From Candidatus Nealsonbacteria bacterium CG11_big_fil_rev_8_21_14_0_20_37_68 (lineage in GTDB: Bacteria > Patescibacteriota > Minisyncoccia > Minisyncoccales > GCA-002782225): a stretch of DNA of 33,624 bases. The translations under genes and the position numbers were made by a program. Below, piece by piece: positions 1 through 33,480 of the stretch. Within the stretch, counting starts at the first letter, position 1, and each line of letters opens with the position of its first letter. Under the pieces are notes generated by a model that was not told the DNA's origin, made no database searches, and was given only the letters and a program-made list of their open reading frames with translations. Location of the stretch: NCBI GenBank assembly GCA_002787295.1, contig PCWJ01000024.1:29931-63554 (forward strand), given 5' to 3'.

Positions 1-2054
1 TTCTTTGAGCATTTGATTTGTTTCCTTTTTGTTTCTACCAGTAAAGAACCGCATTTTGGACAGGTTTCATTAATGGGTTTATCCCATAAAGCAAAATCGC
101 ATTTTGGCCAATTGGAACAGCCATAAAATATTTTTCTCTTTTTAGTTCTTTTCTCCGTGATTTCTCCGCTTTTGCAGTTTGGACACTTAATGCCCAAAGT
201 ATTTTTTTCAAGGGACTCGGTGTATTTACACTTCGGGAATTTAGAACAGGCATAAAATTCTCCAAATTTCCCCAATCTGATTACCAAAGAAGCTTTGCAT
301 TTTGGACAGATTTTTTTAGTTGGTTTTTCGGTAAATTCTTTTTTAGAAACTTCCTCATATTTATGCTTCAGGTTTTCTTCGAAGGGGATATAAAATTCTT
401 GAATTATTGGCGTCCATTTTTTTGAACCTTTGGCAATTTCGTCAAGCGATTCCTCCATCTCGGCCGTAAATTTAATATCAACAATTTTTGGAAAGTGTTC
501 CACCAAAAGATCGTTAACTACGGTTCCAATTTCGGTTGGTTTAAATTTTCTATTTTCGTCTTTTTCAATATAATTTCTTTCCTGAACAGTAGATAATATC
601 GGAGCATAAGTTGAAGGTCTCCCAATTCCATTTTCCTCCAGAGCTTTAATTAGAGTGGCTTCTGAATAGCGAGGAGGGGGTTGAGTAAAATGTTGAGAAG
701 GGATTAATTTTAACAGCTCTAAAATTTCATCGTTTTCAAGCGGAGGCAGCTCGTTTTCTTCAAACTTGATTTGGTAAACCTTTAAAAAGCCATCAAATTT
801 CAAAATCTGTCCCGTTGCACGAAAGCCGTACCCCGCACCAGAACCTTCGGTTCGGTACGGGGCAGGATTTTTTGCCTCGATGTCAACAGTTGTTGAATCA
901 AAAATTGCCTGACCCATCTGGCACGCAATAAATCTTCGCCAAATTAAATCATAAAGTCGAAAACCTTGCTCATCTAATTTGGCTTTTAGTGTTTCTGGAG
1001 TTCCATCGGCAAAAGTCGGTCTTATTGCCTCATGGGCTTCTTGGACTCTACCTTTTGCCTTATATTTTCTCAAAAAGCCTGCCCAATAATTTTTGCCATA
1101 TTTTTCGGTAATAAATTTTTTAGCCGCAAATAAAGATAAATCAGAAAGATTTAGAGAATCTGTTCGGTGATACGTCGTTAGTCCTTTTTCATAAAGTTGT
1201 TGGGCAACCCCCATTGTAAATTTGGCTGGAAAATGAAATCTTTGCCAAGCTTCTTGTTGTAAAGTAGAAGTTGTAAAAGGCGGCAGGGGATTCCTTTTTA
1301 CCTCTTTTTTTTCAACGCTTTGAACTTTATATTCTGCTCCCTCCAGATCTTTTACAATTTCATCTGCCTCTTTTTTAGTTTTGATTCCCAGTTTCGGAAT
1401 AATTTTATCATCCTTTTTGACTAATATAGACTCAAACCAACGAGAAACGTTCTCGTTGGTTTTTTTGAGCTGGGCGATAATAGTCCAGTACTCTTGCGGT
1501 ATGAAATTTTGTATTTCTCGTTCGCGCTCAACAACTAACCTTACTGTCACCGATTGAACTCTTCCAGCAGAAAGACCCCTGGCTATTTTTTTCCATAAAA
1601 ATGGAGATAATTTATAGCCGACAATTCTATCCAAAATCCTTCTTGTTTGTTGAGCATCGACCAGATTCATATCAATTTTCCTTGGATTTTTAAGGGCTTG
1701 GTCAATTGCTGATTTGGTAATTTCATGAAAAACAATTCGCTGGTAAGGTTTTTCTCCGTCTAAATTCAAAATCTGAGCCAAATGCCAAGCAATGGCTTCG
1801 CCTTCCCGATCGGGATCAGTAGCCAAAATAGTGAGTTCGGCTTTTTGACTTTCCTTGGCTAAACTTTGAACAATCTTTTTAGCTTTTTCTGGGATAATAT
1901 ATTTTGGTTTAAAATTCTCTTCAATATCAATTCCAAGTTCATCTTCCGGTAAATCTCTAATGTGACCATAAGAAGAGAGAACCCGATATTTGGGACCCAG
2001 AAAATCCTGGAGAGTTCTTGATTTGGTTGGTGACTCAACGAGTATTAATTGCAT
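1..2054 (-). CDS. topA: DNA topoisomerase I (3' end runs off the window start)
   Basis: Absent from the ORF track because no stop codon lies inside the window. Hand translation of the minus strand from ATG 2054-2052 gives MQLILVESPTKSRTLQDFLGPKYRVLSSYGHIRDLPEDELGIDIE. It continues with TOPRIM DPDREGEAIAWH, the active-site Tyr region GLTTYHRTDS, then three C4 zinc ribbons (CPKCKAS..CSKFPKC, CPNCKSG..CSNWPKC, CPKCGS..). The start overlaps the dprA 3' end by 20 nt. Confidence 0.93.
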   Translation of the reverse strand, partial: MQLILVESPTKSRTLQDFLGPKYRVLSSYGHIRDLPEDELGIDIEENFKPKYIIPEKAKKIVQSLAKESQKAELTILATDPDREGEAIAWHLAQILNLDGEKPYQRIVFHEITKSAIDQALKNPRKIDMNLVDAQQTRRILDRIVGYKLSPFLWKKIARGLSAGRVQSVTVRLVVEREREIQNFIPQEYWTIIAQLKKTNENVSRWFESILVKKDDKIIPKLGIKTKKEADEIVKDLEGAEYKVQSVEKKEVKRNPLPPFTTSTLQQEAWQRFHFPAKFTMGVAQQLYEKGLTTYHRTDSLNLSDLSLFAAKKFITEKYGKNYWAGFLRKYKAKGRVQEAHEAIRPTFADGTPETLKAKLDEQGFRLYDLIWRRFIACQMGQAIFDSTTVDIEAKNPAPYRTEGSGAGYGFRATGQILKFDGFLKVYQIKFEENELPPLENDEILELLKLIPSQHFTQPPPRYSEATLIKALEENGIGRPSTYAPILSTVQERNYIEKDENRKFKPTEIGTVVNDLLVEHFPKIVDIKFTAEMEESLDEIAKGSKKWTPIIQEFYIPFEENLKHKYEEVSKKEFTEKPTKKICPKCKASLVIRLGKFGEFYACSKFPKCKYTESLEKNTLGIKCPNCKSGEITEKRTKKRKIFYGCSNWPKCDFALWDKPINETCPKCGSLLVETKRKQIKCSK
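831..862. repeat. GC-rich hairpin in-frame in topA
   Basis: CCCCGCACCAGAACC-ttc-GGTTCGGTACGGGG. The left end CCCGCACCAGA is identical to 14285-14295. Confidence 0.75.
1434..1462. repeat. 29-nt perfect palindrome in topA
   Basis: AAACCAACGAGAA-acg-TTCTCGTTGGTTT, with 13-bp arms. Confidence 0.85.
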
Positions 2055-2916
2055 AGATATTGTTTCCTAAGTTTCTTATCTTACCTTTTATTTCCAAAAT
2101 AACAAGGCAGCTTACAACTTTTTGTGGGGGTAACTTAGTTTTTTCAATAATTTTGTCGATGTATAATCCCTCCTCTTTTAATGAGTTCAAAATTAAATTT
2201 TCTTCGAGAGTCTCTCCGGTTACTTGCCTGTCGGAACTAGGTTCCGACAGGCCTAAATTTAGTTCTTTTAGAATATCATTAGCGTTTTCAGCCAACCATG
2301 CTCCTTGCTTTATTAAATAATGACAACCCTTAGAGTTTGAAGAATGGATTGGGCCGGGAACAGCAAAAACTTTCCTTCCTTGTTTTTTTGCCCACTCCGC
2401 GGTGATTAAAGCTCCTGACTTTTGCTTGGCTTCTATCACTAAAACCCCCAAAGAAAGACCGGAAATTATTCTATTTCTTTGGGGGAAAGTAAATTTGGAT
2501 CCGCAAGTTCCGGGTGGGTATTCAGAAATTAAACAGCCGCCAGATTCAATAATTTTTTCTGCTAATTTTAAATTGGTTTGAGGGTATATGCTTTTTTCGT
2601 CCAGGCCGGTTCCCAAGACGGCAATTGTTCTTCCTCCGCTTTCCAGGGCAGCCTGATGGGAAAATGTATCAATTCCCGGAGCAAGACCGGAGACAATTGT
2701 TAATCCAGCTTCAGCTAAATCACCGGCAATTTCCAGAGCCACCTGCTTTCCGTAGCTGGAGCACAATCTGGTTCCAACCACGGCAAAACAATTTTCCTCG
2801 GGCAAAATTTTTCCTTTAGCGTAAAGAATTTTTGGCGAGTTTTTTATTTTCTTTAAAATTTTTGGATAAGCTCCGTCTTTTATTGAAATTTCTTTGATTT
2901 CATTTAGCATTTCCAA
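2035..2916 (-). CDS. dprA: DNA processing protein DprA/Smf
   Basis: 293-aa ORF with the Rossmann-like DprA core (VVGTR..SYG, GLAPGIDTFSHQAAL, GGRTIAVLGTGLD, YPPGT, FPQRNRIISGLS, LVIEA..KSGALITA). The dprA-topA gene order is a common arrangement. Confidence 0.9.
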   Translation of the reverse strand: MEMLNEIKEISIKDGAYPKILKKIKNSPKILYAKGKILPEENCFAVVGTRLCSSYGKQVALEIAGDLAEAGLTIVSGLAPGIDTFSHQAALESGGRTIAVLGTGLDEKSIYPQTNLKLAEKIIESGGCLISEYPPGTCGSKFTFPQRNRIISGLSLGVLVIEAKQKSGALITAEWAKKQGRKVFAVPGPIHSSNSKGCHYLIKQGAWLAENANDILKELNLGLSEPSSDRQVTGETLEENLILNSLKEEGLYIDKIIEKTKLPPQKVVSCLVILEIKGKIRNLGNNIYAINTR

Positions 2917-3013
2917 ATCTTAAAACAATTTTTAAAATTCAACAAGTTTCGTATCGAAAATTGCGCCAAAAGTCCAACTTTCACTATGGGGCAAAATGAT
3001 TTAAAATATATTA

Positions 3014-5050
3014 ATGGCTGTGACCAAACAAGAAGTTAAACAGAGAATTGAGAAACTCAAAAAGGTGATTAACCATCATCGGTATTTATATCACGTATTG
3101 AATAAGTCCGAAATTTCTGATGCCGCCTTAGATTCTTTAAAACACGAACTTTATAAATTAGAACAAAAATTTCCAGAGTTTATTACTTCCGATTCTCCAA
3201 CTCAAAGAGTGGCTGGCAAACCCCTGGAAGGATTTGAAAAAGTAAAACATAAAGTTCCGATGCTTTCCATTGAGGATGTTTTCTCTGCTGAGGAACTTAA
3301 AGATTGGGAAGATTATTTAAAAAGATTAATTCCATCTACTGCCTTTGATTATTTTGCCGAACTAAAGATTGATGGATTTGCCATCACTTTAATTTATAAG
3401 AATGGCTTATTTACTACCGGAGCCACCAGGGGAAATGGTCTGGTGGGGGAGGATGTTACCCAAAATTTAAAAACAATCGAGAGCATCCCCCTGAAATTAG
3501 AGGTTCATGGTAAATTGCCAAATACAGAGATTGAGGAAAATCTTAAAAAATTAATCAAAAGAGGAAAAATTGAAATCAGGGGAGAGGTTTTTATGGGAAA
3601 AAAAGACTTTGGAAAGCTGAATGAAGAATTAAAAAAAAGAGGAGAAAAAATCTATGCTAACCCCAGGAATTTAGCCGCGGGTTCCATCCGACAATTAGAC
3701 CCAAAATTAGCTGCTTCTCGGCCCCTTAGATTTTTGGCTTACGATATAGTGACTGATTTTGGTCAAACCCAACACTCTCAAGAACATCAAATTTTGCCGG
3801 TCCTAGGTTTTATTACCGATCTGGGAAAAGAATGTAAAAATTTAAATGAGGTCGTAGATTATCGGAAAGAAATAGCCAAAAAAAGAGAAACTCTTCCTTT
3901 TCAAATTGATGGGGTGGTGGTGAACGTGGACAACAATTCGCTTTTTAAAAAATTGGGAGTGGTAGGGAAAAGCCCTCGGGGAATCAGGGCTTTTAAATTT
4001 TCTCCAAAACAAGCCACTACTAAAGTTTTGGATATAAAACTGCAGATAGGAAGAACGGGAGCTATAACACCGGTTGCTCACTTGGAGCCGGTTGAGGTTG
4101 GGGGGGTAACCATTACTCGAGCCACTTTGCACAATGAAGATGAAATAAAAAGATCGGGAGTAAAAATTGGAGATACGGTTATTGTTGAAAGGGCGGGCGA
4201 TGTGATTCCAGCCGTTGCTAAAGTTTTAAAAGAGCTCAGGACAGGAAAAGAAAAAGAATTTCATTTTCCCGAAAAATGTCCGGTTTGCGGCCGGAACTTA
4301 GTTAAACCATCTGGAGAAGCAGTTTGGCGATGCAAAAATCGAAACTGCGGAGCCATAAAAAGAGAATTTTTATACCATTTTGCTTCAAAAAAAGCTTTTG
4401 ATATCGAAGGATTGGGACCAAAGATTATTGATCAATTAATAGACGAGAATTTAATTTTTAGTACCCCTGATTTGTTTGAACTAAAAGAAGGAGACTTAAT
4501 TCCCTTGAAAAGGTTTGCCGAAAAATCAGCCAAAAATTTAATTGAATCTATTGAAATTGCAAAAAAAATCTCCTTGGCAAGGTTTATCTATGGCTTAGGG
4601 ATTCGTCACGTTGGCGAAGAGATAGCGATTGCAATATCTAATTATTTTGGTTCCCTTGATAAATTAAAAGAAGCTAACTTACAAGATCTTGAGAAAATTC
4701 CAGATATCGGCGAGGTGGTAGCTAAAAGCATATATTTTTGGTTTAGAGATAAGAAAAACTTAAAATTAATCAAAGATTTATTAAAAGCTGGAGTGAAAAT
4801 TATTTTTCCCCAAAAAATAAAAACTCAATTAAAAAGAAAAACTTTTGTTTTTACCGGAGCCTTAAAAACTATGGCTAGAGATGAGGCTGAAAACGAAGTG
4901 AGAGCATTTGGGGGGGCAGTTTCTTCTTCGGTTTCCAAAGAAACAGATTATGTAGTGGTGGGCGAATCCCCCGGTTCAAAAACAGAGAAAGCCAAAAAAT
5001 TAGGAGTAAAAATTATTTCAGAAAAAGAATTTTTAAAAATGATAAAATAA
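3014..5050 (+). CDS. ligA: NAD-dependent DNA ligase
   Basis: 678 aa. Adenylation motif ELKIDGFAI, OB domain, Cys4 zinc finger CPVCGRNL..WRCKNRNC, HhH region and C-terminal BRCT (FVFTGAL..). Confidence 0.95.
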   Translation: MAVTKQEVKQRIEKLKKVINHHRYLYHVLNKSEISDAALDSLKHELYKLEQKFPEFITSDSPTQRVAGKPLEGFEKVKHKVPMLSIEDVFSAEELKDWEDYLKRLIPSTAFDYFAELKIDGFAITLIYKNGLFTTGATRGNGLVGEDVTQNLKTIESIPLKLEVHGKLPNTEIEENLKKLIKRGKIEIRGEVFMGKKDFGKLNEELKKRGEKIYANPRNLAAGSIRQLDPKLAASRPLRFLAYDIVTDFGQTQHSQEHQILPVLGFITDLGKECKNLNEVVDYRKEIAKKRETLPFQIDGVVVNVDNNSLFKKLGVVGKSPRGIRAFKFSPKQATTKVLDIKLQIGRTGAITPVAHLEPVEVGGVTITRATLHNEDEIKRSGVKIGDTVIVERAGDVIPAVAKVLKELRTGKEKEFHFPEKCPVCGRNLVKPSGEAVWRCKNRNCGAIKREFLYHFASKKAFDIEGLGPKIIDQLIDENLIFSTPDLFELKEGDLIPLKRFAEKSAKNLIESIEIAKKISLARFIYGLGIRHVGEEIAIAISNYFGSLDKLKEANLQDLEKIPDIGEVVAKSIYFWFRDKKNLKLIKDLLKAGVKIIFPQKIKTQLKRKTFVFTGALKTMARDEAENEVRAFGGAVSSSVSKETDYVVVGESPGSKTEKAKKLGVKIISEKEFLKMIK

Positions 5051-5056
5051 AACCGA

Positions 5057-5073
5057 CGGAGAACAGTTCTCCG
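5057..5073. terminator. Hairpin between convergent ligA and mfd
   Basis: CGGAGAAC-a-GTTCTCCG. On the minus strand it is followed by tcggTTTTATTTTA, so it fits best as the mfd terminator. Confidence 0.6.
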
Positions 5074-5098: not shown

Positions 5099-7171
5099 TT
5101 AACTCCTTTTTAATTTCTCAATTGCTTCTGATAATATCTGACAGTATAAATTTAAGCCGACTTGATTTATATTTCCTGATTGCTCTTTGCCTAAAATGTT
5201 TCCGGCGCCGCGGATTTCTAAATCCTTTAAAGCAATTTTATAGCCAGAACCCAGTTCTTCAGCTTCTTTCAAAGCATCTAATCTCATTTCGGCTTTTTCT
5301 GAAAGGTGACTGCCGTTCACCTCCACACCATAACGAGGACTAACTTCGTTAATTTTATCGCCTTCGGCGATTTGTCCTCGTTTGGTGTGGGGGTAAAGAA
5401 AGTAAGCAAAGCTCTGAATGTGAGAACGGCCAATCCTGCCTCTGATTTGATAAGCTTCAGCTAAGCCTAATCTGGTTGAGTCAGCCACGATTAAAGTATT
5501 GACATTTGGCAAATCTAAACCATTTTCAATAATAGTAGTCGCTACTAAAACATCAATTTTTCTATTTTGAAAGTCTGCCATTACTTTTACCAATTCTTTT
5601 TCTTTCAGTCTTCCATGAGCAATCCCCAATTTTACCTCTGGTCTAAAACCCGACGTTAGTCCTTCTAAAAACTTTTTGGCTGTTTCGATTGTCTCTACTC
5701 GATTGTATAAAAAATAAACCTGTCCTCCTCGAGAAATTTCAGCCCAAATTGCTTTTTTAATAACGGTTTCCGACCAGGGCAAAATAAAGGTTTTGATGGC
5801 TAATCTCCCCAGTGGGGGAGTTTGAATTAGACTTATTTCTTTCAGAGAAGATAAGGCTAAATAAAGAGTTCTGGGAATGGGAGTGGCGGATAGAGACAAG
5901 ACATCCAAAGAGGTTCTTAATTTTTTTAATTTTTCTTTTTGGTTTACTCCAAATCTCTGTTCGTCATCAATTACCAAAAGTCCTAAGTTTTTAAATTCAA
6001 CGTCAGAAGATAAAAGCCGATGGGTTCCAATTACCATGTCTATTTGCCCCCGCTTTAAATTTTGAATTATCTTTTTTTGACCCGTTTTTGGCTGCAGACG
6101 ACACAATAACTCAATTCTTATGGGGAATTGCTTTAATCTTTTTTTAAAGTTGTGATAGTGTTGATTGGCTAAAATTGTTGTTGGGCAGATCATTGCTGTC
6201 TGATAACCTGAATTTACTTTTTTAACCATGGTTCTTAGGGCAATTTCAGTCTTTCCAAATCCAACATCGCCGCAAACAATCCTATCCATAGGCTCTAACT
6301 TTTTAAGATCTTGTTCAATTTCTTTCATTGTCTGGACCTGATCCGGAGTTTCTTCAAAGAGAAAAGTGCCGGCGAGTTTGGCATCTATTTCTGAATCGGG
6401 AAAGCAGGGAGGCCTTTGGGCAATTTCTCTTTTGGCGTAAATTTCTAAAAGCTCTTTTGCTAATTTTTCAGCCTCCTCTTTTATTTTTCTTTTAGTTTTT
6501 TGCCAGAAAGGACTGCTTAATCTTGAAATTTTAGGTTCGACAAACCCAATGTAACGTGATAGTTTTCTCTCTAAGCCAAATGGAACATATAATCTATCTC
6601 CTTGGGCATACGCGATCTGGTAGTAAGATAATGTCCGATCGGACATTTTTTGATTAAGGGGTTTTTCTTTTGTAAGGCCAATAAACTTTCCCACGCCGTG
6701 GTCTAGATGGACCAAATAATCTCCGGGTTTTAATCCTTTTAAGTCAGAAAATATTTTTTGAGATTTTAATCTCTTTTTTAAAATTTCTTTAACTGTCTTT
6801 TCGTCTTTGATTTCAATGGGCAATCTTTCAATATTTTCGATTAGGTTTCCGTAAAAATCAAAACGAATTGGATAATTTAAATTAATTGGGAAAACCTCAA
6901 TTATTCCTCCCCGGCGAGAAAATTCTCCGGGCTCTGAAACCCGAATTACTTTTTCATAACCCATTTCATCCAGTTTTCTTAAAAATTGAGAAAAATTACA
7001 GCTTTGATTTTTTTCTAAAAATATGGTGTTATCCTCCCAGAAAGTTTGGGTTTTTTGGGTTTGAAGAATTTTATTTAAATTTTTTTCAAACCAAAAATTA
7101 CTTTTTTCTAAAAAGTAGGGGGTAATACTGACAATCAGAAGTTTTGTGATGATCTGATCTGACATCTCCAT
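5099..7171 (-). CDS. mfd: Transcription-repair coupling factor, shortened architecture
   Basis: 690 aa. RNAP-interaction region GDYLVHLDHGVGKFIGL, SF2 motifs GDVGFGKTEIA and DDEQRFG, and the TRG-like region. Much shorter than the ~1150-aa canonical Mfd. Carries a palindromic insert at 5321-5393. Confidence 0.88.
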   Translation of the reverse strand: MEMSDQIITKLLIVSITPYFLEKSNFWFEKNLNKILQTQKTQTFWEDNTIFLEKNQSCNFSQFLRKLDEMGYEKVIRVSEPGEFSRRGGIIEVFPINLNYPIRFDFYGNLIENIERLPIEIKDEKTVKEILKKRLKSQKIFSDLKGLKPGDYLVHLDHGVGKFIGLTKEKPLNQKMSDRTLSYYQIAYAQGDRLYVPFGLERKLSRYIGFVEPKISRLSSPFWQKTKRKIKEEAEKLAKELLEIYAKREIAQRPPCFPDSEIDAKLAGTFLFEETPDQVQTMKEIEQDLKKLEPMDRIVCGDVGFGKTEIALRTMVKKVNSGYQTAMICPTTILANQHYHNFKKRLKQFPIRIELLCRLQPKTGQKKIIQNLKRGQIDMVIGTHRLLSSDVEFKNLGLLVIDDEQRFGVNQKEKLKKLRTSLDVLSLSATPIPRTLYLALSSLKEISLIQTPPLGRLAIKTFILPWSETVIKKAIWAEISRGGQVYFLYNRVETIETAKKFLEGLTSGFRPEVKLGIAHGRLKEKELVKVMADFQNRKIDVLVATTIIENGLDLPNVNTLIVADSTRLGLAEAYQIRGRIGRSHIQSFAYFLYPHTKRGQIAEGDKINEVSPRYGVEVNGSHLSEKAEMRLDALKEAEELGSGYKIALKDLEIRGAGNILGKEQSGNINQVGLNLYCQILSEAIEKLKRS
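5321..5393 (+). repeat. Family B element inside mfd
   Basis: CCACACCATAACGAGGAC..ATCGCC-ttc-GGCGAT..GTCCTCGTTTGGTGTGG. About 17-bp inverted termini with an inner hairpin. Confidence 0.85.
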
Positions 7172-10134: not shown

Positions 10135-10157
10135 AATAATAATTAACATCCCATATC

Positions 10158-10350
10158 GGAGAGGGGTCGGGACGGGTCGCAAGAGTTCTCCGCGAAGCGG
10201 AAACTCCCGACCTAGAACCTTTCGGTTCTCCCGTGTAGGAAAACAGGGAGCGAAGCGACCGCCAGAAACCGAGGGTTTCTGGAGAGCGAGCCCGAACCGA
10301 GCACATAAGTTATGTGCTCGGGCCAGCCGAAGGCTGGGGAGGGCGAGCGA
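10158..10350. repeat. GC-rich mosaic of at least 6 hairpins (hit-rpsU spacer); candidate structured RNA or nested REP cluster
   Basis: Hairpins seen: GGTCGGGA..TCCCGACC (10165-10212), CCGC-gaa-GCGG, AGAACC-tttc-GGTTCT, CCAGAAACC-gag-GGTTTCTGG (10262-10282), GAGCACATA-agt-TATGTGCTC (10299-10319) and CCAGCC-gaa-GGCTGG (10323-10337). Confidence 0.8.
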
Positions 10351-10369
10351 TTAATTTAGCGTTACCACT

Positions 10370-11106: not shown

Positions 11107-11409
11107 GTGAATCAATCTTTTTCTAAAATTTGGATTATAGTTGTTCTTATTGTTTTAATTACCGGAGGAATTTTAGCTTGGAAACCCCCAATTTTAAAAG
11201 AAGTAATCACCGATTGTGTATTATCTTTGTGTGATTGCAAATGCCATCCAGAAGGTAAAACACCCGAGAAATTAAGAGGGGTGCTTTGCGGCGTTAATTG
11301 CGAAGGTATTTATGGAATCGAAGATTGTAAATTAAAAAGTGTATTTGGAATAAATTTTTGTGTTATAGAAAACTTATATTTCGGTTTTTTTAAGCAAAAA
11401 AGATTATGA
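11107..11409 (+). CDS. Hypothetical small membrane-anchored Cys-rich protein
   Basis: 100-aa ORF with a GTG start, one N-terminal TM helix and eight Cys. Its end overlaps the ybeY start by 4 nt. I recognise no family. Confidence 0.4.
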   Translation: MNQSFSKIWIIVVLIVLITGGILAWKPPILKEVITDCVLSLCDCKCHPEGKTPEKLRGVLCGVNCEGIYGIEDCKLKSVFGINFCVIENLYFGFFKQKRL

Positions 11410-11840
11410 TCGAGATTAATAATCTGACGACAAATCTGGTTGATGAGAAATTTTTGAAAAAGGTTGCTGGAAAAGTTTTAGAAGAAGAATCCGCCAGCTG
11501 GCGGAAAAAAGAGGCAGAGCTATCAATTGCTTTGGTTGGACAAGGAAGGATAAGGGAGTTAAATAAGAGATATAGGGGTAAAAATCGAGCAACCGATGTT
11601 TTGGTTTTTCCGGAACTAAAAGTAGTAAAAGCCCAAGAAGTTCAGGGTTTAGGAGAAATAATAATTTGTTTTAGAGAGGTCAAAAAAAATGCCAAAAAAT
11701 ATAAATCAAGTTTTGAAAAAGAATTAGCTCGAGTTTTGATTCACGGCATTTTACATCTATTAGGATACGACCACGAAAAGTCAAAAGCTACAGCCCTTAA
11801 AATGGAAGAAAAACAAAACTATTATCTTTCAAAAATTTAA
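11406..11840 (+). CDS. ybeY: rRNA maturation endoribonuclease YbeY
   Basis: 144 aa with the metal-binding motif HGILHLLGYDH. Confidence 0.9.
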   Translation: MIEINNLTTNLVDEKFLKKVAGKVLEEESASWRKKEAELSIALVGQGRIRELNKRYRGKNRATDVLVFPELKVVKAQEVQGLGEIIICFREVKKNAKKYKSSFEKELARVLIHGILHLLGYDHEKSKATALKMEEKQNYYLSKI

Positions 11841-11841
11841 A

Positions 11842-11925
11842 TAAGAACCTGCCTCGCTCCGCCAGTCGGCGGAGCTCGGCAGAACCTTGATTCGCTAAGG
11901 TATAGACATATAATCTTGAATTATG
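11842..11925 (+). repeat. Family A module, copy 1 (ybeY-ftsA spacer)
   Basis: TAAGAACCTGCCTCGCTC..GGCAGAACCTTGATTCGCTAAGGTATAGACATATAATCTTGAATTATG. Contains the hairpin CTGCC-TC-GCTCCGCC-agtc-GGCGGAGC-TC-GGCAG and a sigma70-like promoter. Confidence 0.85.
11887..11914 (+). promoter_or_regulatory. sigma70-like promoter of ftsA-ftsZ
   Basis: TTGATT, 16-nt spacer, TATAAT. The -10 ends 8 nt before the ATG and there is no SD. Confidence 0.6.
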
Positions 11926-13188: not shown

Positions 13189-13231
13189 ACCTGCCTAAGT
13201 TTTTCTTTGCAAAATTTAGGTAGGTAAACAT

Positions 13232-14164
13232 ATGACTAAAATTAAAGTAATTGGCGTTGGCGGATCGGGATCTAATACCGTTTCAAGGATGACTTCTTGT
13301 AAAATCCAGGGGGTAGATTTAATTGCGGTCAATACCGATCTCCAAGATCTTAAAAAAACTAAGGCGAATTTAAAAATTCAAATCGGAAAAAACTTAACCA
13401 AAGGATTGGGAGCGGGGATGAATCCCGAAATAGGTAAAAAAGCGGTTGAAGAACAAAGCAAAAATATTGAGGAGGTTTTAAGGGGAACAGATATGGTTTT
13501 TATTACCGGAGGTTTTGGAGGAGGAACCTGTACCGGTGCTGCTCCGGTTATAGCCGAAATTGCTAAATCCCTTGGGGTTTTAACTGTTGCCATAGTAACT
13601 AAACCTTTTGGTTTTGAGGGAGTTCCCCGAATGAAAATTGCCAAGGAGGGATTGGAAAACCTAAAAAGCAAAGTTGATACGCTGGTAGTGATACCCAACG
13701 ACAAACTTCTCTCTTTGGTTGATGAAAACACTACTTTGCTTTCAGCTTTTTGGTTAGCAGATGATGTTTTAAGACAGGCAGTGCAAGGGATCTCTGATTT
13801 AATCTTAGTTCCGGGAATTATTAATATTGATTTTGCCGATGTTAAAACCATTTTGGAAAATTCGGGTCGGGCAACTTTCGGTTACGGAAAGGCAAAGGGG
13901 TCAAAAAGAATGGCAGAAGCCGTAAATTTAGCCATCAATTCTCCTTTGGTTGATTTTTCCATCCGAGGGGCTAAAGGAGTTTTGTTTAATGTTTACGGCG
14001 GGGACGATTTGAGTTTGACCGAAATTGACGAGGCAGCAAAAATTATTACCAAAAACATTGAGCCTCAAGCCAAAGTAATTTTTGGGGCAGTTAAAGATTC
14101 GAAACTAAAAAAAGGAGAAGTAAAAATAATGGTAATTGCTACTGGATTTTTAACTTCCACCTAA
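13232..14164 (+). CDS. ftsZ: Cell division GTPase FtsZ (core only, no C-terminal tail)
   Basis: 310 aa. GVGGSGSN, tubulin signature GGFGGGTCTGAAP, and NDKL. It ends right after the last core strand (MVIATGF). Confidence 0.93.
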   Translation: MTKIKVIGVGGSGSNTVSRMTSCKIQGVDLIAVNTDLQDLKKTKANLKIQIGKNLTKGLGAGMNPEIGKKAVEEQSKNIEEVLRGTDMVFITGGFGGGTCTGAAPVIAEIAKSLGVLTVAIVTKPFGFEGVPRMKIAKEGLENLKSKVDTLVVIPNDKLLSLVDENTTLLSAFWLADDVLRQAVQGISDLILVPGIINIDFADVKTILENSGRATFGYGKAKGSKRMAEAVNLAINSPLVDFSIRGAKGVLFNVYGGDDLSLTEIDEAAKIITKNIEPQAKVIFGAVKDSKLKKGEVKIMVIATGFLTST

Positions 14165-17470: not shown

Positions 17471-17482
17471 TAAAATAGGGGA

Positions 17483-21560: not shown

Positions 21561-22901
21561 ATGGAAAAGATAAATTCAATCAATCAAAAAGCTTGGGTAG
21601 TGGCAGTAAGTATGGGTTATGGTCACCAAAGAACCGCTTATCCTCTAAAATATTTAGCCACCGGGCAGAAGATTATTAATGCTAATGATTATGAAGGAAT
21701 TCCCAAAAAAGATTGGCTTTTATGGGAAAGAATTCGCAAATTTTACGAATTTATTTCAAGATTTAAAAGGGTTTCGATAATTGGCCAAGCCTCTTTTTTT
21801 ATCTTCGATCAATTCCAAAAAATTCTTAGCTTTTATCCCAAAAGAGATTTATCTAAACCTAATTTTTCCTTAAAACAGATATTTTCTCTGATTAAGAAGG
21901 GCTGGGGCAAAGACCTGATTAAGAAATTAGAACAAAAGCCCCTGCCCTTTATTACTACTTTTTTTACGCCGGCCTTTATGGCTGAAGTTTTTAATTACCC
22001 TGGAGAAATTTTTTGCGTTGTTTGCGATGCAGACATCTCAAGAAGCTGGGTTTTCTTGGAGCCCCAAAAAAGCAAAATTAAATATTTTGCTCCAACATCC
22101 TGGGCAGCCCATCGGTTAAAGCTTTATGGGGTAAAAGAAGAAAATATTTTTTTAACTGGCTACCCTTTACCTCAAGAAAATCTTGGCCACCCACCCTACG
22201 GGCGGGTACCCGATTTAGAAATTTTAAAATCTGATTTAAGTTACCGGCTTTTAAATCTTGATCCAGATAAAATTTATTTTCGGCGATACAAAGTGTTAAT
22301 CGAAGAATATCTTGGAAGTTTGCCCAAAAACTCAAATCACCCTTTAACAATAATGTTTTCGGTTGGGGGAGCTGGGGTTCAGAAAGAAATTGGAATTCAG
22401 ATTGTAAAATCCTTAGCCAGAACCATTGGGGAAAGAAAAATCAAATTAATTTTGGTCGCCGGCACCAGAGAAAAAGTTAAAGAATATTTTCTAAAAAATA
22501 TAAAAAAACTGGGCCTTGAGGACACTTTAGGGAAAGGCGTTGAAATAATTTTTGCCCAAAAAATCGACGACTATTTTCAAAGATTCAATCAGGCCCTGAG
22601 AACAACCGATATTTTATGGACAAAACCAAGCGAACTTTCTTTTTATACTGCTTTAGGATTGCCAATTATTATTGCTCCTTCGATTGGCTCTCAGGAAGAT
22701 TTTAACCGAAGGTGGCTCTTACATCTGGGTTCGGGAATAGCTCAGGAGAATCCAAAATATGTTCATCAGTGGCTTTTTGATTTTTTAGAATCGGGTCGTT
22801 TTGCCGAGGCTGCTATGCAGGGATTTATTGAAGGAGAAAAACTGGGAACATTTAAGATCAAAAAAATAATTTTTAATAAAAATTCGGTTTCCCCCGTGTA
22901 G
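21561..22901 (+). CDS. GT-B glycosyltransferase, MGDG-synthase/UgtP-like
   Basis: 446 aa. N-terminal SMGYGHQRTAYPL resembles the xGxGHxxxAxAL motif of the MGDG_synth/GT28 family, and a C-terminal GT-B half is present. The last residues and the stop codon lie inside a GC-rich repeat. Confidence 0.6.
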   Translation: MEKINSINQKAWVVAVSMGYGHQRTAYPLKYLATGQKIINANDYEGIPKKDWLLWERIRKFYEFISRFKRVSIIGQASFFIFDQFQKILSFYPKRDLSKPNFSLKQIFSLIKKGWGKDLIKKLEQKPLPFITTFFTPAFMAEVFNYPGEIFCVVCDADISRSWVFLEPQKSKIKYFAPTSWAAHRLKLYGVKEENIFLTGYPLPQENLGHPPYGRVPDLEILKSDLSYRLLNLDPDKIYFRRYKVLIEEYLGSLPKNSNHPLTIMFSVGGAGVQKEIGIQIVKSLARTIGERKIKLILVAGTREKVKEYFLKNIKKLGLEDTLGKGVEIIFAQKIDDYFQRFNQALRTTDILWTKPSELSFYTALGLPIIIAPSIGSQEDFNRRWLLHLGSGIAQENPKYVHQWLFDFLESGRFAEAAMQGFIEGEKLGTFKIKKIIFNKNSVSPV

Positions 22902-22952
22902 GAAATTATTCAAAACCGAGGGTTGTGAAAAGAGGGGGGTCGGGGGAAACCG
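22885..22952. repeat. Family C element (GT - DMT spacer)
   Basis: 12-bp perfect stem CGGTTTCCCCCG/CGGGGGAAACCG encloses 44 nt. Shares TTCGGTTyCyCCCGTGTAGGAAA, AAACCGAGGGTT and GAGGGGTCGGG with 10161-10282. Confidence 0.8.
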
Positions 22953-22961
22953 TGTGATCGT

Positions 22962-26493: not shown

Positions 26494-26497
26494 CGCT

Positions 26498-26657
26498 CGG
26501 GCATCTTGCCTCAGGGAGCACGGCATCAGCCAAGTGGTAATAAAGATTTTATCTTCGGCTGTGCCTATTACTCGCCAGTCTTCAGTGACTTTTATTAAAA
26601 GTGCAATACTTTCTCTGGCGACTGGCTGCGTAATGCTCCCTTCGGCAAGAATGCCCT
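26498..26657. repeat. ~160-nt element closed by ~23-nt imperfect inverted termini (MITE-like or structured ncRNA)
   Basis: GGGCATCTTGCC-tca-GGGAGCA (26498-26520) pairs with TGCTCCC-ttc-GGCAAGAATGCCC (26634-26657). Internal hairpins are GGCATCAGCC..GGCTGTGCC, AAGAT-ttt-ATCTT and ACTTTTA-t-TAAAAGT. Confidence 0.7.
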
Positions 26658-26690
26658 CGCTTATCTATTCCTATATTCGTATTAATTCGT

Positions 26691-26725
26691 CCTAGACCCG
26701 TTCGTCCCGAACGGGACGGACTAGG
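26691..26725. repeat. GC-rich hairpin with overlapping perfect palindromes
   Basis: CCTAG..CTAGG encloses CCCGTTCG-tcc-CGAACGGG and GTCCCGAACGGGAC. Ends 17 nt upstream of the GT2 start. Confidence 0.8.
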
Positions 26726-26741
26726 GTAATTCGTAGGGTTT

Positions 26742-27467: not shown

Positions 27468-28955
27468 ATGTCAATATACGATTTGCCAAAATTTGACCCC
27501 GTTAGAAATTTTTTTAAAAAATTCAAAAAAGTAAAACTAACGGGAATTTCTAACGGGGTTGAATTACCCAAATTAAACCCTCCTAAGTTTTTTTTCAAAA
27601 AATTTGGGAGGGTAAAAGTCCCAAAACCCAGCACCAGAGCAGGGCTCGGTGCTGGACAGTCCCGAAGTGAGCTTAGCTCTAGTTCGGGGCTCGGTTCTGG
27701 ACCTTGGGGGAATAAAGCCGTTATTATTTTTTTGATAATTTTAATTTCTTTTATTTTTGGAGGCATAGGTGGAATCTTTACCGGCAGTTATTTTTATTCC
27801 CGGGTAGAAGATTACCTTAAAAAATTAAACATCCAGATTCCCCAGGTTGAAAAAGAAACAATAATCGAAAAAGAGTACGTTCCCGAGACCTCTCAAGAAG
27901 AAAAAACAATTAATGTGGTGAAAGAGGCATCCCCTTCGGTGGTAAGTATTATTATTACTAAAGACCTTCCAGTTGTTGAGCAATTCTACTATAACCCCCT
28001 TAAGGAATTTGAAGAATTTTTTGGGCCCCTTGGCCTTGAGTTTGAAGTTCCTCAGTATCAAGAAAAAGGAACCGAGAAAAAGGAAATTGGAGGAGGAACC
28101 GGTTTTATTATTTCTGAAGACGGAATGATTTTGACCAACCGCCATGTGGTCTTAGATAAAGAAGCAGATTACACTGTTTTAACCAACGAGGGTCAAAAAT
28201 ACCCGGCTAAAGTTTTAGCTCGAGACCCAATCAAAGATTTGGCTGTAATTAAGGTTGAAAGCGAAAAGAAATTTGAGCCCTTAAAATTGGGAGATTCCGA
28301 CAAACTTCAGCCGGGCCAGACCGTGATTGCGATTGGCAATGCTCTTGGAGAATTTCGAAATACGGTTTCTGCCGGCGTAGTTTCCGGGCTAAAGAGAACC
28401 GTTGCTGCTTCCGGCGGAGGCCAAACCGAAGTTTTAGAAAATGTAATTCAGACCGATGCCGCTATTAATCTAGGGAATTCCGGCGGTCCTTTGTTAAATT
28501 TACAAGGGGAGGTGATTGGAGTTAATGTAGCTGTGGCTCAGGTAGCGGAAAATATTGGTTTTGCTATTCCCATCAATGAAGCCAAAAAAGACATTGAGCA
28601 GGTTAAAACCTTGGGCAAAATTGTCTATCCCTTTTTGGGAATTTATTACATTGTGATTACCCCCGAACTTAAAGAAAAATTTAACTTGCCGGTTGATTAC
28701 GGAGCCTGGATTGGCAGAAATGAAAAAGGAGAATACACTGAAGAAGCAATTTTTTCCAATTCGGCCGCCGAGAAAATCGGTTTAAAAAGAGATGATATTA
28801 TTCTGGAGTTTGACGGCAAAAAAATTACTTCAGAAAATCCTTTAGCTAAAATTATTCTGGGATATAACCCGGGGGACAAAATTTCGTTAAAGGTTTTAAG
28901 AGACAACAAAGAGGAAATTTTTCCGGTTATTCTTGGCGAGAGAAGCGAAGATTAA
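27468..28955 (+). CDS. htrA: HtrA/DegP-type serine protease with PDZ domain
   Basis: 495 aa. Intact triad contexts (LTNRHVV, KDLAVIKV, GNSGGPL), a C-terminal PDZ domain and one TM helix. The N-terminal ~80 aa are encoded by repeats and palindromes. Confidence 0.88.
   Translation: MSIYDLPKFDPVRNFFKKFKKVKLTGISNGVELPKLNPPKFFFKKFGRVKVPKPSTRAGLGAGQSRSELSSSSGLGSGPWGNKAVIIFLIILISFIFGGIGGIFTGSYFYSRVEDYLKKLNIQIPQVEKETIIEKEYVPETSQEEKTINVVKEASPSVVSIIITKDLPVVEQFYYNPLKEFEEFFGPLGLEFEVPQYQEKGTEKKEIGGGTGFIISEDGMILTNRHVVLDKEADYTVLTNEGQKYPAKVLARDPIKDLAVIKVESEKKFEPLKLGDSDKLQPGQTVIAIGNALGEFRNTVSAGVVSGLKRTVAASGGGQTEVLENVIQTDAAINLGNSGGPLLNLQGEVIGVNVAVAQVAENIGFAIPINEAKKDIEQVKTLGKIVYPFLGIYYIVITPELKEKFNLPVDYGAWIGRNEKGEYTEEAIFSNSAAEKIGLKRDDIILEFDGKKITSENPLAKIILGYNPGDKISLKVLRDNKEEIFPVILGERSED
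27497..27558. repeat. 14-bp perfect inverted repeat in the htrA 5' coding region
   Basis: CCCCGTTAGAAATT (27497-27510) and AATTTCTAACGGGG (27545-27558), plus an extra CTAACGGG at 27537-27544. Confidence 0.85.
27625..27703 (+). repeat. Family A two-hairpin core, in-frame in htrA
   Basis: By hand alignment, 27627-27690 differs from 14302-14365 at about 5 of 64 positions. Confidence 0.85.
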
Positions 28956-31707: not shown

Positions 31708-31716
31708 GTTTTTGTC

Positions 31717-32480: not shown

Positions 32481-32487
32481 TTTCCCG

Positions 32488-32504
32488 CCGGGAAGTCTTC
32501 CCGG
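32488..32504. repeat. REP-like palindrome, left of the RAYT gene
   Basis: 8-bp arms CCGGGAAG/CTTCCCGG around one central t. Lies 8 nt after the stop of the upstream gene. Confidence 0.85.
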
Positions 32505-32646
32505 TAGCAGTAGGCAGCATATATCTAAATCTAATATAGAAAATAATTTTTTACTTTTGGGCTTGACAGCTCTTTTTAATTCCCCAAGATAACAACTGTT
32601 GATTATTTTTTAGAAGTTAGCTAAATTGCTAATTGAGATAGTTTCC

Positions 32647-32682
32647 GGGATGGCTCCCCGGCACGTGCCGGGGAGCCATCCC
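32647..32682. repeat. Perfect 36-bp palindrome
   Basis: GGGATGGCTCCCCGGCAC|GTGCCGGGGAGCCATCCC, ending 33 nt upstream of the RAYT ATG. Confidence 0.9.
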
Positions 32683-32714
32683 AACTCTAGAGAAGCCATC
32701 TCTGTAATAAACCT

Positions 32715-33452
32715 ATGCCAATAAAACATCCACAATTTGTTAATGGAGAAATCTATCACATTATAGTTAGGGGAATTGCCGGTCAAAAAACTTTTTTAGA
32801 CGATAAAGATCGTCTGAGATATCTTTTTAATTTGTATAAATTTAATAATAAAAATATAGTTATTCGTAATCCCTCTTACCGGGAAGCCATCCCGGTAGTC
32901 TACCGGGATGGCTTCCCGGTGCTGTTGGAGACAGAAAGGGAAAAGCCAAGAGATTTATTAATTGAACTTTTAGCCGTTTGTTTAGTGCCCAATCATATTC
33001 ATTTATTAGTTCGTCAGGCTGACGACGGCGGTGTTTCTTTATTTTTCCAAAAAATGGGCGGTTATGCCAGTTATTTTAATAAAAAATACCAAAGATTTGG
33101 TTCTTTATTTCAGCGACCATTTAAAGCTATTCATATCAAAACTAATGACCAATTATTAATTGTCACTACCTATATTCATTTAAATTTAATTGATTTAATT
33201 GAGCCAAACTGGAAAATTAAGGGTATTTCCGATCCTCAAAAGATTATGGATTTTTTAGAAACTTATCCTTGGTCAAGCTATCCTTATTATTTGGGAAAAT
33301 CAAATCTTTCTTGGCTAATTAATTCTGATTTTCTAAATAAAATTTTAAAAAGGCCCGAGGATTTTCGGAATTTTGTTAAGGCTCGGATTTTTCAGAAAAC
33401 TGAACTAAAAAATTTTTTAAAGAAGACCAAAGAAATTGAGAAGTTTTTCTGA
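32715..33452 (+). CDS. REP-associated tyrosine transposase-like protein (HUH / Y1, IS200-like fold)
   Basis: 245 aa. N-terminal YHIIVRG, HUH motif in PNHIHLLV, and a Tyr ~57 aa downstream in TTYIHLN. No TnpB partner. Flanked and interrupted by related palindromes. Confidence 0.8.
   Translation: MPIKHPQFVNGEIYHIIVRGIAGQKTFLDDKDRLRYLFNLYKFNNKNIVIRNPSYREAIPVVYRDGFPVLLETEREKPRDLLIELLAVCLVPNHIHLLVRQADDGGVSLFFQKMGGYASYFNKKYQRFGSLFQRPFKAIHIKTNDQLLIVTTYIHLNLIDLIEPNWKIKGISDPQKIMDFLETYPWSSYPYYLGKSNLSWLINSDFLNKILKRPEDFRNFVKARIFQKTELKNFLKKTKEIEKFF
32878..32920. repeat. 43-nt palindrome inside the RAYT CDS
   Basis: ACCGGGAAGCCATCCCGGTA-gtc-TACCGGGATGGCTTCCCGGT, with 20-bp perfect arms. Each arm is itself a small hairpin. 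Confidence 0.9.
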
Positions 33453-33455
33453 TAG

Positions 33456-33480
33456 TCTACCGGGAAGACTTCCCGGTAGA
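33456..33480. repeat. REP-like palindrome, right of the RAYT gene
   Basis: 12-bp perfect arms TCTACCGGGAAG/CTTCCCGGTAGA around a central a. Starts 4 nt after the RAYT stop. Confidence 0.88.

Follow-up and report, generated by a model that had tools for sequence, protein, structure and literature searches.

The window, that is, the whole stretch of 33,624 nucleotides of Candidatus Nealsonbacteria DNA that was analysed, carries topA, dprA, mfd, ybeY, ftsA, comEC, htrA and a gene for a RAYT-like HUH transposase. A preliminary description had reported palindromic segments throughout it, in spacers and also, without loss of frame, in essential genes. Indeed, a hairpin was found at each coordinate it gave, and all the coding segments it named lay in open frames of topA, mfd, comEC, htrA and the Y1_Tnp gene; both locations were borne out. 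Eight hairpins had perfect stems of 10 bp or more, compared with 0.47 expected from dinucleotide shuffles, and five had stems of 12 bp or more, compared with 0. The recurrent building blocks that had been named all exceeded shuffle expectation (observed and expected numbers: CCGGGAAG, 8 and 1.05; CCCGCACCAGA, 2 and 0.01; GCCGAAGGC, 4 and 0.14; GAGAANNNTTCTC, 3 and 0.09; CCCGGTAG, 7 and 0.28; CCCGAAC, 8 and 2.55). Further elements had been overlooked: those at dprA 2226-2252, ybeY 11490-11505, htrA 27497-27559 and 27574-27616, the REP doublet at 32647-32682, and the C-terminus of topA, which is read from a hairpin module. The features are as follows, with the strand given for those within genes or with a direction.

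831-866, minus strand: 36-nt hairpin element in frame in topA, encoding PAPYRTEGSGAG
1434-1462, minus strand: topA hairpin (perfect stem of 13 bp; core CGAGAA-ACG-TTCTCG), read as TNENVSRWF at a beta-hairpin turn
2226-2252, minus strand: dprA linker hairpin, perfect stem of 12 bp, read as GLSEPSSDRQV
5057-5073: small hairpin CGGAGAA-CAG-TTCTCCG in the ligA/mfd spacer, core type as in the topA and comEC hairpins
5316-5397, minus strand: family M MITE-like element in frame in mfd, 74 nt (5320-5393) plus flanking 4-mers, encoding HTKRGQIAEGDKINEVSPRYGVEVNG
6630-6647, minus strand: small hairpin in mfd adjoining a 9-residue window-specific insert; ambiguous assignment, in a hypervariable loop and not a clean indel
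10147-10355: GC-rich hairpin cluster filling the spacer between the HIT gene and a 70-residue gene, fold z-score -4.7
11490-11505, plus strand: 16-nt perfect palindrome TCCGCCAGCTGGCGGA in ybeY, a window-specific 4-residue insert (SASW)
11841-11923, plus strand: 83-nt hairpin and promoter-like module in the ybeY-ftsA spacer, containing TTGATT-16-TATAAT
13186-13228: hairpin with an AT stem between ftsA and ftsZ, sister copy to htrA 27574-27616 (79% identity; family D10)
14284-14418: two hairpin elements (14284-14376 and 14382-14418) forming a 135-nt composite that interrupts a copy of the 83-nt module
17395-17470: family M copy in the nrdG-comEC spacer, sister of the mfd copy
17871-17911, plus strand: 41-nt perfect palindrome read in frame by comEC (stem of 19 bp; core GAGAAC-CGT-TCTCG, E-N-R-S-R)
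22885-22952: GC-rich palindrome of 68 nt within a larger insert (22869-22961, about 90 nt) at a gene junction
27497-27559, plus strand: in-frame palindrome of the htrA tail, CCCCGTTAGAAAT..ATTTCTAACGGGG, encoding DPVRNFFKKFKKVKLTGISNGV
27574-27616, plus strand: in-frame AT-stem hairpin of the htrA tail, encoding NPPKFFFKKFGRV
27622-27702, plus strand: in-frame GC-rich double hairpin of the htrA tail, 81 nt, encoding STRAGLGAGQSRSELSSSSGLGSG
32486-32507: REP unit CCGGGAAGTCTTCCCGGTAG upstream of the RAYT gene
32647-32682: inverted REP doublet (perfect stem of 16 bp) lying 33 nt ahead of the RAYT start codon
32715-33452, plus strand: RAYT-like HUH/Y1 transposase gene, 245 residues (Pfam Y1_Tnp, 29.9 bits; cut-off, 23)
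32877-32920, plus strand: REPIN-like inverted REP doublet in frame inside the RAYT gene, 20-bp perfect stem, encoding SYREAIPVVYRDGFPV
33456-33480: REP unit TCTACCGGGAAGACTTCCCGGTAGA, 3 nt past the RAYT stop codon

Comparison with orthologues showed that elements of this kind are insertions, and that empty sites exist in sister genomes. Not clean indels are topA 1434-1462, mfd 6630-6647 and the palindrome inside the RAYT gene, which lies in a hypervariable linker. The 36-nt topA element corresponded to a clean 12-residue gap relative to TopA of S. mutans and E. coli, and was present in 14 of the 120 orthologues, scattered across at least nine lineages. In the DNA comparison, the site was filled in the window, L010 and L024 and empty in L011; the element was identical at 36 of 36 positions between genomes with flanks 68-71% identical. 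Its inner stem had changed from GAACC/GGTTC to GAAAT/ATTTC, and the orthologue residue pairs T-G, N-I, N-V and A-G at the element fit reverse-complement codons. Neither a flanking duplication nor a GTAG tag was seen at this element. Furthermore, six more TopA inserts from other species all formed hairpins, and 74 of the 120 orthologues had at least one insert. The segment at 1434-1462 is not a clean indel because both length and sequence of this loop are hypervariable among the 120 orthologues, and the dprA linker is just one residue longer than those of the sister genomes. As for comEC, about half of the 101 orthologues had no insert at the turn, and at least 15 of them had the E-N-x-S-R core, whose middle codon varied.

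The mfd insert comprises 78 nt (26 residues), and both sister genomes lack it. Its sequence (5316-5398) aligned with spacer positions 17390-17475, and the element was 94% identical to a copy in the relA-parB spacer. Nine further copies of this family, here called family M, were spread over four other species-level genomes; seven or eight of these lay inside real genes, including those for LeuRS, a DHH-family protein and an EPSP-synthase-family protein. Insert lengths within genes were 75, 78, 81 and 90 nt, all divisible by three, and one spacer copy measured 80 nt. Matching 4-nt flanks, differing in sequence from copy to copy, were observed at 9 or 10 of 12 copies; at the mfd site itself the flanking 4-mers mismatch (TTCA and TAAA). 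The outer helix, with 20-bp terminal inverted repeats, was invariant in sequence. The inner helices covaried, with seven pairs changed on both sides compared with 3.0 in shuffles, and none of 500 shuffles reached this value. By these sequence criteria, the invariant ends and the 4-nt repeats at the flanks, family M looks like a classical MITE. An autonomous element with family M ends was sought and none was found.

Three adjacent elements are inserted within the conserved N-terminal tail of htrA, relative to its orthologues. Nearly all of the 59 orthologues examined share the start MSIYDLPKF, and on this ground the htrA copy is considered truly coding. The palindrome at 27497-27559 occupied the same htrA site in some orthologues and a different site in others, and a spacer copy was found at L011 435-491. 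The 81-nt double hairpin was missing from all 59 orthologues, and it was 89% identical to the spacer segment 14297-14377.

Gene junctions gave similar results. The spacer between the HIT gene and the 70-residue gene measured 235 nt, compared with 15 and 36 nt in the sister genomes, and the ybeY-ftsA spacer 82 nt, compared with 3-5 nt. The 83-nt module of the latter is repeated in reverse orientation, with 97.6% identity, just left of the window, where the last 11 codons and the stop codon of topA are read from it. The module occurs a third time at 14252-14456, in interrupted form: GCAGAAC and CTTGAT, which adjoin at the paralogous empty site (11841-11923, GCAGAAC|CTTGAT), are separated there by the 135-nt composite, which has neither a flanking duplication nor a GTAG tag. 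The two genes bordering 22869-22961 overlap by 13 nt in L021 and L022 and are kept apart by the element in the window, where it gives the upstream gene a new C-terminus and stop codon. Segments 10158-10350 and 22885-22952 have three blocks in common. Of the proposed sister copies in spacers, those pairing mfd with 17390-17475, htrA with 14297-14377 and 10158-10350 with 22885-22952 were confirmed. Segment 26498-26725 had no sister copy in any sequence examined, and its membership is not supported.

The presence of a RAYT-like HUH transposase in the window was corroborated. The protein has conserved HUH and Tyr motifs; its structure model (pLDDT 91.6) gave as top PDB match 4er8, E. coli RAYT bound to REP; and the gene occupies the same syntenic position in the sister species, with the same GTAG-tagged REP on both flanks. 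Its score is far under the NCBIfam equivalog cut-off (27 vs 80 bits). The internal doublet was identical at 42 of 44 nt to that of the sister species, compared with 77% over the whole gene, and residues 61-70 within this segment form a beta-hairpin in the model. REPs cognate to this gene were present, and some also lay inside genes: inverted doublets were dispersed at 28 further sites in related metagenome contigs with no RAYT nearby, some within uvrA, the trigger factor gene and a metallo-beta-lactamase-fold gene. In the window's own genome, over the 51 kb examined, the REP family occurred only within 1 kb of the RAYT gene.

The elements had been regarded as one modular network. As expected from that description, families recurred beyond the window, in other genomes and just to its left, and four had copies in genes as well as in spacers. 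They proved to be a mix of families, with just the CCGGGAAG/GTAG family linked to the RAYT. Their intragenic copies had lengths divisible by three and lay in loops or tails, and orthologous sites were filled in some genomes and empty in others. No presence/absence polymorphism was found among 99.9% identical contigs of the window's organism from many samples, and no transposition event was caught.

We consider it probable that short mobile elements of several unrelated families, non-autonomous, hairpin-forming and about 30-135 nt in length, have colonised this genome, whose relatives go under the names Nealsonbacteria, Parcubacteria or Minisyncoccales, and that their in-gene copies were retained in frame. 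The single syntenic RAYT-like transposase at 32715-33452 would most likely mobilise the GTAG-tagged REP units and their inverted doublets (REPINs) in the form of single-stranded hairpins, with the CTACCGGGAAGCCATCCCGGTAG hairpin as its putative substrate. Invariant 20-bp ends with 4-nt direct repeats are the footprint expected of a staggered-cut (DDE-type) transposase and not of an HUH enzyme, and we infer that such an enzyme, encoded outside the window, most likely moves family M in trans. A third group, to which no mobiliser is assigned, would comprise the 36-nt topA element, the 81-nt double hairpin, the E-N-x-S-R hairpin and the AT-stem hairpins. Since many spacers in these genomes measure just a few bases, many insertions would hit genes. 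Selection would then retain only inserts that add 3n bases, are stop-free in the frame used and fall at tolerant places, for example beta-turns, linkers, N-terminal tails and C-terminal ends, where they would be translated as extra loops. It is from frame and length alone that we take the inserts to be translated and not removed.

Coding palindromes might instead arise in place, template switching or hairpin-templated repair lengthening imperfect inverted repeats in loop-coding DNA and keeping the arms matched. The perfect stems of 19-20 bp within coding DNA, the compensated arm changes and the outer stems that differ at each site around the common CGAGAA-NNN-TTCTCG core are consistent with this, as are the palindromes at topA 1434-1462 and in dprA, which barely alter protein length relative to the sister genomes. 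Such a process could have produced several coding palindromes of the latter kind and may contribute to the smallest hairpins. However, it does not explain copies of 71-81 nt with 89-94% identity at unlinked loci, 36 fully identical nucleotides between divergent TopA flanks, the occurrence of family M in other species within genes unrelated to one another, or the 4-nt flanking duplications, and as a general account we regard it as unlikely.

That the hairpins are host regulatory structures under selection (terminators, RNase III or mRNA-stability sites, promoter-terminator cassettes), spread by recruitment and not by selfish mobility, seems highly improbable. The 83-nt module does join a strong hairpin to the promoter-like TTGATT-16-TATAAT and lies upstream of ftsA, nrdD and relA in one orientation; many spacer copies follow stop codons, spacer fold z-scores reach -4.7 and -7.2, and the REP doublet inside the RAYT gene is strongly conserved. 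Nevertheless, sister genomes do without the elements at the same junctions, with spacers of 3-36 nt or overlapping genes, orthologous coding sites are patchily occupied, and a promoter and terminator scan did not exceed shuffle expectation. Moreover, a function acquired after insertion fits the mobile-element explanation and is no true alternative to it. Assembly or binning artefacts are almost certainly not the cause. A chimeric join is possible in two strain contigs, L002 and L006, which part from the others at a point bearing a REP unit that the sister species has in identical form; yet more than 120 independent assembly blocks (JGI and ENA) gave the same insert-bearing proteins, overlaps are 99.9% identical, and related elements occur in independent genomes and projects.

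The mobile-element explanation has several known counterparts. The preliminary description knew of no account of RAYT-associated repeats together with in-gene insertion in a reduced AT-rich genome. As a claim of novelty this was too strong, as Di Nocera et al. (2013; PMC3733652) had already reported RAYT-associated GTAG REPs and dimers inside genes, many of them for replication or repair, such as uvrA, in a survey of eight phyla that included none of the CPR. As in REPIN/RAYT systems (PMC3733652; Bertels and Rainey 2011, PMC3116915; 4er8), the hairpin is GC-rich with a GTAG/CTAC foot and frequent inverted doublets, the Y1/HUH gene lies between its own REPs and is inherited at a fixed place, and units or dimers in genes, including uvrA, encode short extra peptides. 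Unlike in those systems, the host is a reduced, AT-rich member of the Patescibacteria, the RAYT is divergent, and a REP doublet conserved across species lies within its reading frame. Rickettsia palindromic elements (Ogata et al. 2000, 2002), according to the summary in PMC10969869, likewise comprise several palindromic families in frame in unrelated housekeeping genes of a small AT-rich genome, with apparently tolerated surface peptides and copies in spacers. Differences are that the host belongs to another lineage, many elements here are 36-81 nt and not about 100-150 nt, one family has terminal repeats and flanking duplications, and one has a candidate mobiliser. Family M resembles bacterial MITEs that fuse in frame, such as Coxiella QMITE (PMC5896051), in its invariant terminal inverted repeats, short direct repeats, non-coding nature and occurrence in both spacers and genes, as well as the Anabaena MITEs that fuse with host genes, as related in PMC10969869. 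It differs from them in having no known parent insertion sequence and in its very high in-gene share in other genomes.

The GC clusters of yeast mitochondria are GC-rich palindromes in an AT-rich organelle genome. Together with the coding palindromes of Nematomorpha mitochondria (PMC6649704), they share with the present elements GC-rich hairpins in a compact AT-rich genome, sometimes read as protein, and differ in being organellar, in their sequences and in that no transposase is implicated. In-frame hairpin elements in housekeeping genes are known from Rickettsia and some REP-rich bacteria, and we found no report in the literature for Patescibacteria. What is new here is the phylum, Patescibacteria/CPR, and the reduced, AT-rich setting.

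All of the segments reported as palindromic in the preliminary description folded as described, and the observation is real. In the window (G+C 37%), eight perfect stems of at least 10 bp were found vs. 0.47 in dinucleotide shuffles, and five of at least 12 bp vs. none; each building block named as recurring was also commoner than expected. An Rfam scan (E up to 1) and a tRNA/tmRNA scan of the whole window gave no credible match, indicating that the structured spacers correspond to no known RNA gene. The window carries the housekeeping genes topA, dprA, ligA, a short mfd, pth, lepB, hisS, HIT, yqeY, and ybeY, together with ftsA, ftsZ, nrdD, nrdG, comEC, lon, htrA, clpB, and a Y1_Tnp gene. More than 120 assembly blocks (JGI and ENA metagenomes) yielded proteins identical to those of the window, and relatives were labelled Patescibacteria, Parcubacteria, Nealsonbacteria, Pacebacteria, or Minisyncoccales. 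The window was lengthened to a 50.9-kb composite, in which the overlaps mismatched at 3 of 12,910 and 0 of 10,910 positions. The elements discussed below are as follows.

5320-5393: copy of family M, a MITE-like element, in mfd (74 nt)
17395-17470: the other copy of family M in the window
11841-11923: 83-nt module
14284-14418: 135-nt composite element
13186-13228 and 27574-27616: AT-stem hairpins
27622-27702: 81-nt double hairpin in htrA
32715-33452, + strand: RAYT-like gene (245 aa)
32877-32920: doublet of two inverted REP units inside the RAYT-like gene

The genes proposed to carry palindromes without losing their frame were compared with orthologues, and in topA, mfd, htrA, and comEC repeated palindromic elements indeed lay in frame opposite gaps, with the reading frame kept. 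In TopA, the insert KNPAPYRTEGSG faced a clean gap of 12 residues when aligned to solved TopA structures; the loop placement was taken from this PDB alignment instead of the AlphaFold model, which was poor (pLDDT 55.5). Of 120 TopA orthologues (73-80% identity), 74 had at least one insert, and PAPYR-xxx-SGAG occurred at exactly the matching position in 14 of the 120. These 14 carriers fell into at least nine separate places in a neighbour-joining tree, each beside sequences without the insert. In the DNA, 36 nt are inserted between AAAAAT and TAY, and the site was filled in the window and in the related contigs L010 and L024 and empty in L011. The element was identical in the window and L024 (36/36 nt), whereas the flanking 150 nt were just 68-71% identical. 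Furthermore, the inner stem GAACC/GGTTC of the window was changed to GAAAT/ATTTC in L010, and the peptide variants T-E-G, N-E-I, N-A-V, and A-E-G are compatible with reverse-complement codon pairs with a free middle codon. The second topA segment, 1434-1462, lies within a hypervariable loop and is a weaker case. Separately, residues 201-226 of TopA from another species (L023) contained, within a single loop, two neighbouring copies of a 29-nt hairpin, CCTATA-GGCCGAGCCTTCGGGCT-TAGG, each flanked by the direct repeat CAAAAAT, a pattern suggestive of recurrent insertion, or of tandem duplication, at a single site.

In Mfd, a 26-residue insert (HTKRGQ...VEVNG) corresponded to the family M copy and was missing from two sister genomes, an empty site like that of topA in L011; the segment at mfd 6630-6647 was ambiguous. 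This Mfd-like protein (5099-7171), comprising UvrB_inter, CarD_TRCF_RID, and helicase domains, is short, with 690 aa in the window and about 650 in sister genomes; E. coli Mfd is much longer. The tail of htrA contained three inserts (27497-27559, 27574-27616, and 27622-27702) that minimal orthologues lack. The possibility that the htrA copy lies 5' of the true start was ruled out, since the N-terminus MSIYDLPKF is kept in nearly all of 59 orthologues; the tail is therefore coding. In comEC, a perfect palindrome of 41 nt lay at a turn that is KLTIKPE-KIEG, with no insert, in about half of the 101 orthologues, the remaining ones carrying 10-25 residues of varied kinds. At least 15 ComEC orthologues had E-N-x-S-R with a free middle codon, and the hairpin core encoding it was also found in topA 1434-1462. 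The dprA palindrome, with a length change of one residue, was a weaker case; the called start of dprA is ATG at 2910, not TTG.

Spacers were enlarged as well. The spacer between HIT and the next gene was 235 nt in the window vs. 15 and 36 nt in sister genomes, and that between ybeY and ftsA was 82 nt vs. 5 and 3 nt; sister genomes had palindromic spacers of their own. The segment 22885-22952 belongs to an insert of about 90 nt that provides a new C-terminus to the upstream gene, and the two flanking genes overlap by 13 nt in the sister species L021 and L022. A second copy of the 83-nt module, reversed and 97.6% identical, was located immediately to the left of the window, at -93 to -11, and the last 11 codons and the stop codon of topA come from it. 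A third copy, 14252-14456, is broken by the 135-nt composite element, so that 14252-14456 and 11841-11923 represent a filled site and its paralogous empty site. The module consists of a strong hairpin and TTGATT-16-TATAAT and precedes ftsA, nrdD, and relA in one orientation, and it may represent a mobile cassette of terminator and promoter; a promoter and terminator scan gave no excess over chance.

Other features of these regions were also recorded. The 248-nt spacer 26494-26741, 5' of a GT2 glycosyltransferase gene, contains a long-range stem and folds with very low energy (z = -7.2). It had been listed (as 26498-26725) among the spacers holding sister copies of the modules, and for 26494-26741 neither a sister copy nor an Rfam match was found; it could be a structured RNA of a new kind or a cluster of elements. 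Both this spacer and the GT2 gene were missing at the corresponding place in L021/L022. In the window, ligA (3014-5050) lies between mfd and dprA, an arrangement not seen in the sister genomes L010 and L011, from which a 100-aa gene between yqeY and ybeY (11107-11409, no family match) is also missing. FtsZ (13232-14164) has 310 aa and stops directly after the FtsZ_C domain; it seems to have no usual C-terminal linker and tail, and FtsZ of L011 has 308 aa.

Subsequently, the RAYT-like protein was examined. It matched Pfam Y1_Tnp at 29.9 bits (cut-off 23), and among 44 homologues H94 and H96 of the Y1/HUH motif were invariant and Y153 and N157 nearly so; about 10,000 homologues were detectable, with the HUH and Tyr motifs conserved. 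Against NF047646, the curated RAYT equivalog model of NCBIfam, the score stayed below the cut-off (27.1 bits vs. 80). The protein is a divergent relative. A sequence search against the PDB returned nothing useful, and a fold search with the predicted model (pLDDT 91.6) was used. The best Foldseek match was 4er8_A, the E. coli RAYT with a REP hairpin (E 1.1e-6, target-normalised TM 0.67), with the TnpA proteins of IS608, ISDra2, and IS200 ranking behind it (E 2e-4 or weaker); the predicted fold is thus nearer to RAYT than to IS200/IS605 TnpA.

REPs are short GC-rich hairpins with the conserved tetranucleotide GTAG at the foot (PMC3733652, PMC6006769). The unit around the RAYT-like gene, CTACCGGGAAGCCATCCCGGTAG, is such a hairpin with GTAG at its foot, and cognate REPs flank the gene at 32486-32507, 32647-32682, and 33456-33480. 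In L021/L022, the RAYT gene follows a trypsin-like gene as in the window (76% protein identity), with CTACCGGGAAGCCATCCCGGTAG on both flanks. The internal doublet was the same at 42 of 44 nt in the window and L021/L022, vs. 77% over the whole RAYT gene. It encodes residues 55-70, of which 61-70 form a beta-hairpin in the model, within a linker hypervariable in the family. When metagenomes were scanned for the unit, at least 118 loci were obtained, including at least 30 of low GC, at least five of which were RAYT loci. At least 28 distinct low-GC sites had no RAYT nearby and were mostly doublets 24 nt apart. Some doublets were intragenic rather than extragenic, with uvrA (near residue 500), a metallo-beta-lactamase-fold gene, trigger factor (between the FKBP and C-terminal domains), and the RAYT gene as hosts. 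In the 51 kb of this organism, all REP copies were within 1 kb of the RAYT gene. To the right of the window lies a giant gene (more than 2,800 aa; L001 11629-20250), near the start of which co-occurring strain contigs diverge (L002 and L006, from 11678). Two variants match the sister species identically at the breakpoint, in a REP unit and in the sequence downstream of it; either recombination took place at a REP or the join is chimeric assembly. Contigs of the same organism were clonal up to this variable gene and showed no presence/absence polymorphism.

The lengthened composite contained three copies of family M: that in mfd and two spacer copies, of which one was 94% identical to the mfd copy. 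That this family recurs beyond the window was confirmed by nine more copies in four other genomes (scan with one genome per species), and seven or eight of the nine lay in long open frames that are real genes by Pfam. The host genes were as follows.

LeuRS
DHH-family protein
EPSP-synthase-family protein
metallo-beta-lactamase-fold protein
GH42-like proteins
FAD oxidoreductase
DUF6938

Gene inserts were 75, 78, 81, or 90 nt long, and that in the relA-parB spacer was 80 nt. The ends are conserved terminal inverted repeats, CCCCCACACCATAACGAGGAC and its reverse complement, and a perfectly matching 4-nt direct repeat, a target-site duplication, adjoined the CCCCC/GGGGG ends in 9 or 10 of 12 copies; its sequence varied by copy (TTTA, TCAA, TAAA, CTTG, TTAG, GTAA), and the 4-nt flanks of the mfd copy did not match. 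In the outer helix of 20 pairs, 12 were invariant across 11 copies from five genomes. RNAalifold recovered this invariant helix only, and the inner two helices were set by hand; they covaried, with seven pairs changed on both sides vs. 3.0 in shuffles (none of 500 shuffles reached seven). Separately, a copy in L020 (2097-2169) carries a loop mini-hairpin consisting solely of the family's own ends, CCCCCACACCAAAC-TTT-GGTGTGGGGG, and interpretable either as a nested insertion or as the footprint of an excision.

The preliminary description had joined these elements and the RAYT-like transposase into a single modular network. This has to be replaced by several co-resident mobile hairpin families. 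RAYT was rejected as serving all of them because the GTAG tag is missing in the others and family M has flanking duplications; the RAYT link would hold for the GTAG family only. The anatomy of family M appears to be that of a MITE mobilised by a transposase making staggered cuts, which points to an enzyme other than RAYT. No flanking duplication was observed at the topA element or the 135-nt composite element. The 36-nt topA element, the 81-nt double hairpin, the E-N-x-S-R hairpin, and the AT-stem hairpins are assigned neither to RAYT nor to the enzyme of family M. Ends CCCGCACC..GGTGCGGG common to the topA element, the 14284-14376 element, and a spacer element of L010 suggest a superfamily with variable interiors.

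Survival in frame is best explained by selection, which would retain insertions of 3n length, free of stop codons and located in loops, in a genome with hardly any spacer to spare. Occupation of the same loops recurred in separate lineages, the identical 36-nt element lying at one topA site in at least nine of them and varied hairpins at the turn of ComEC in roughly half of the species. Loops struck repeatedly in separate lineages would imply targeting by structure or sequence. A broader reading, in which hairpins of this Patescibacteria clade are not just tolerated passengers but the chief source of length differences among essential proteins, the same loops are struck again and again under targeting directed by structure or sequence, and the RAYT-internal doublet is a self-recognition or autoregulatory site, seems to us improbable as a whole.

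CPR genomes are very small and usually called repeat-poor. Here, short mobile hairpins have altered spacers and essential proteins alike; they affect gene calling, orthologue alignment, and phylogenetic markers and would account for many "CPR-specific insertions" in conserved proteins. To our knowledge, no mover of Rickettsia palindromic elements (RPEs) has been found so far; one family with a credible RAYT offers a route to asking how such in-frame palindromes move.

The elements resemble RPEs in architecture, as in-frame palindromic elements in functional genes are the hallmark of the latter (PMC10969869). The joint occurrence of REP/RAYT and in-frame insertion in a reduced AT-rich genome had been taken as apparently undescribed. 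This stands for the CPR, as a literature search combining CPR/Patescibacteria with palindromic, in-frame, or RAYT gave nothing relevant, but not in general: a 2013 survey of eight phyla, CPR not included, recorded GTAG and CGTC REPs within genes of several species, often as dimers and often in repair genes such as uvrA (PMC3733652). The present system differs from REP/REPIN-RAYT systems in that its protein is below the RAYT equivalog cut-off and some doublets are intragenic, although intragenic exceptions are on record (PMC3733652). Taken together, the finding is well supported and of a kind already known, in an unexpected phylum; its standout details are the recurrent occupation of one loop in separate lineages and the conserved REP doublet inside the RAYT gene.
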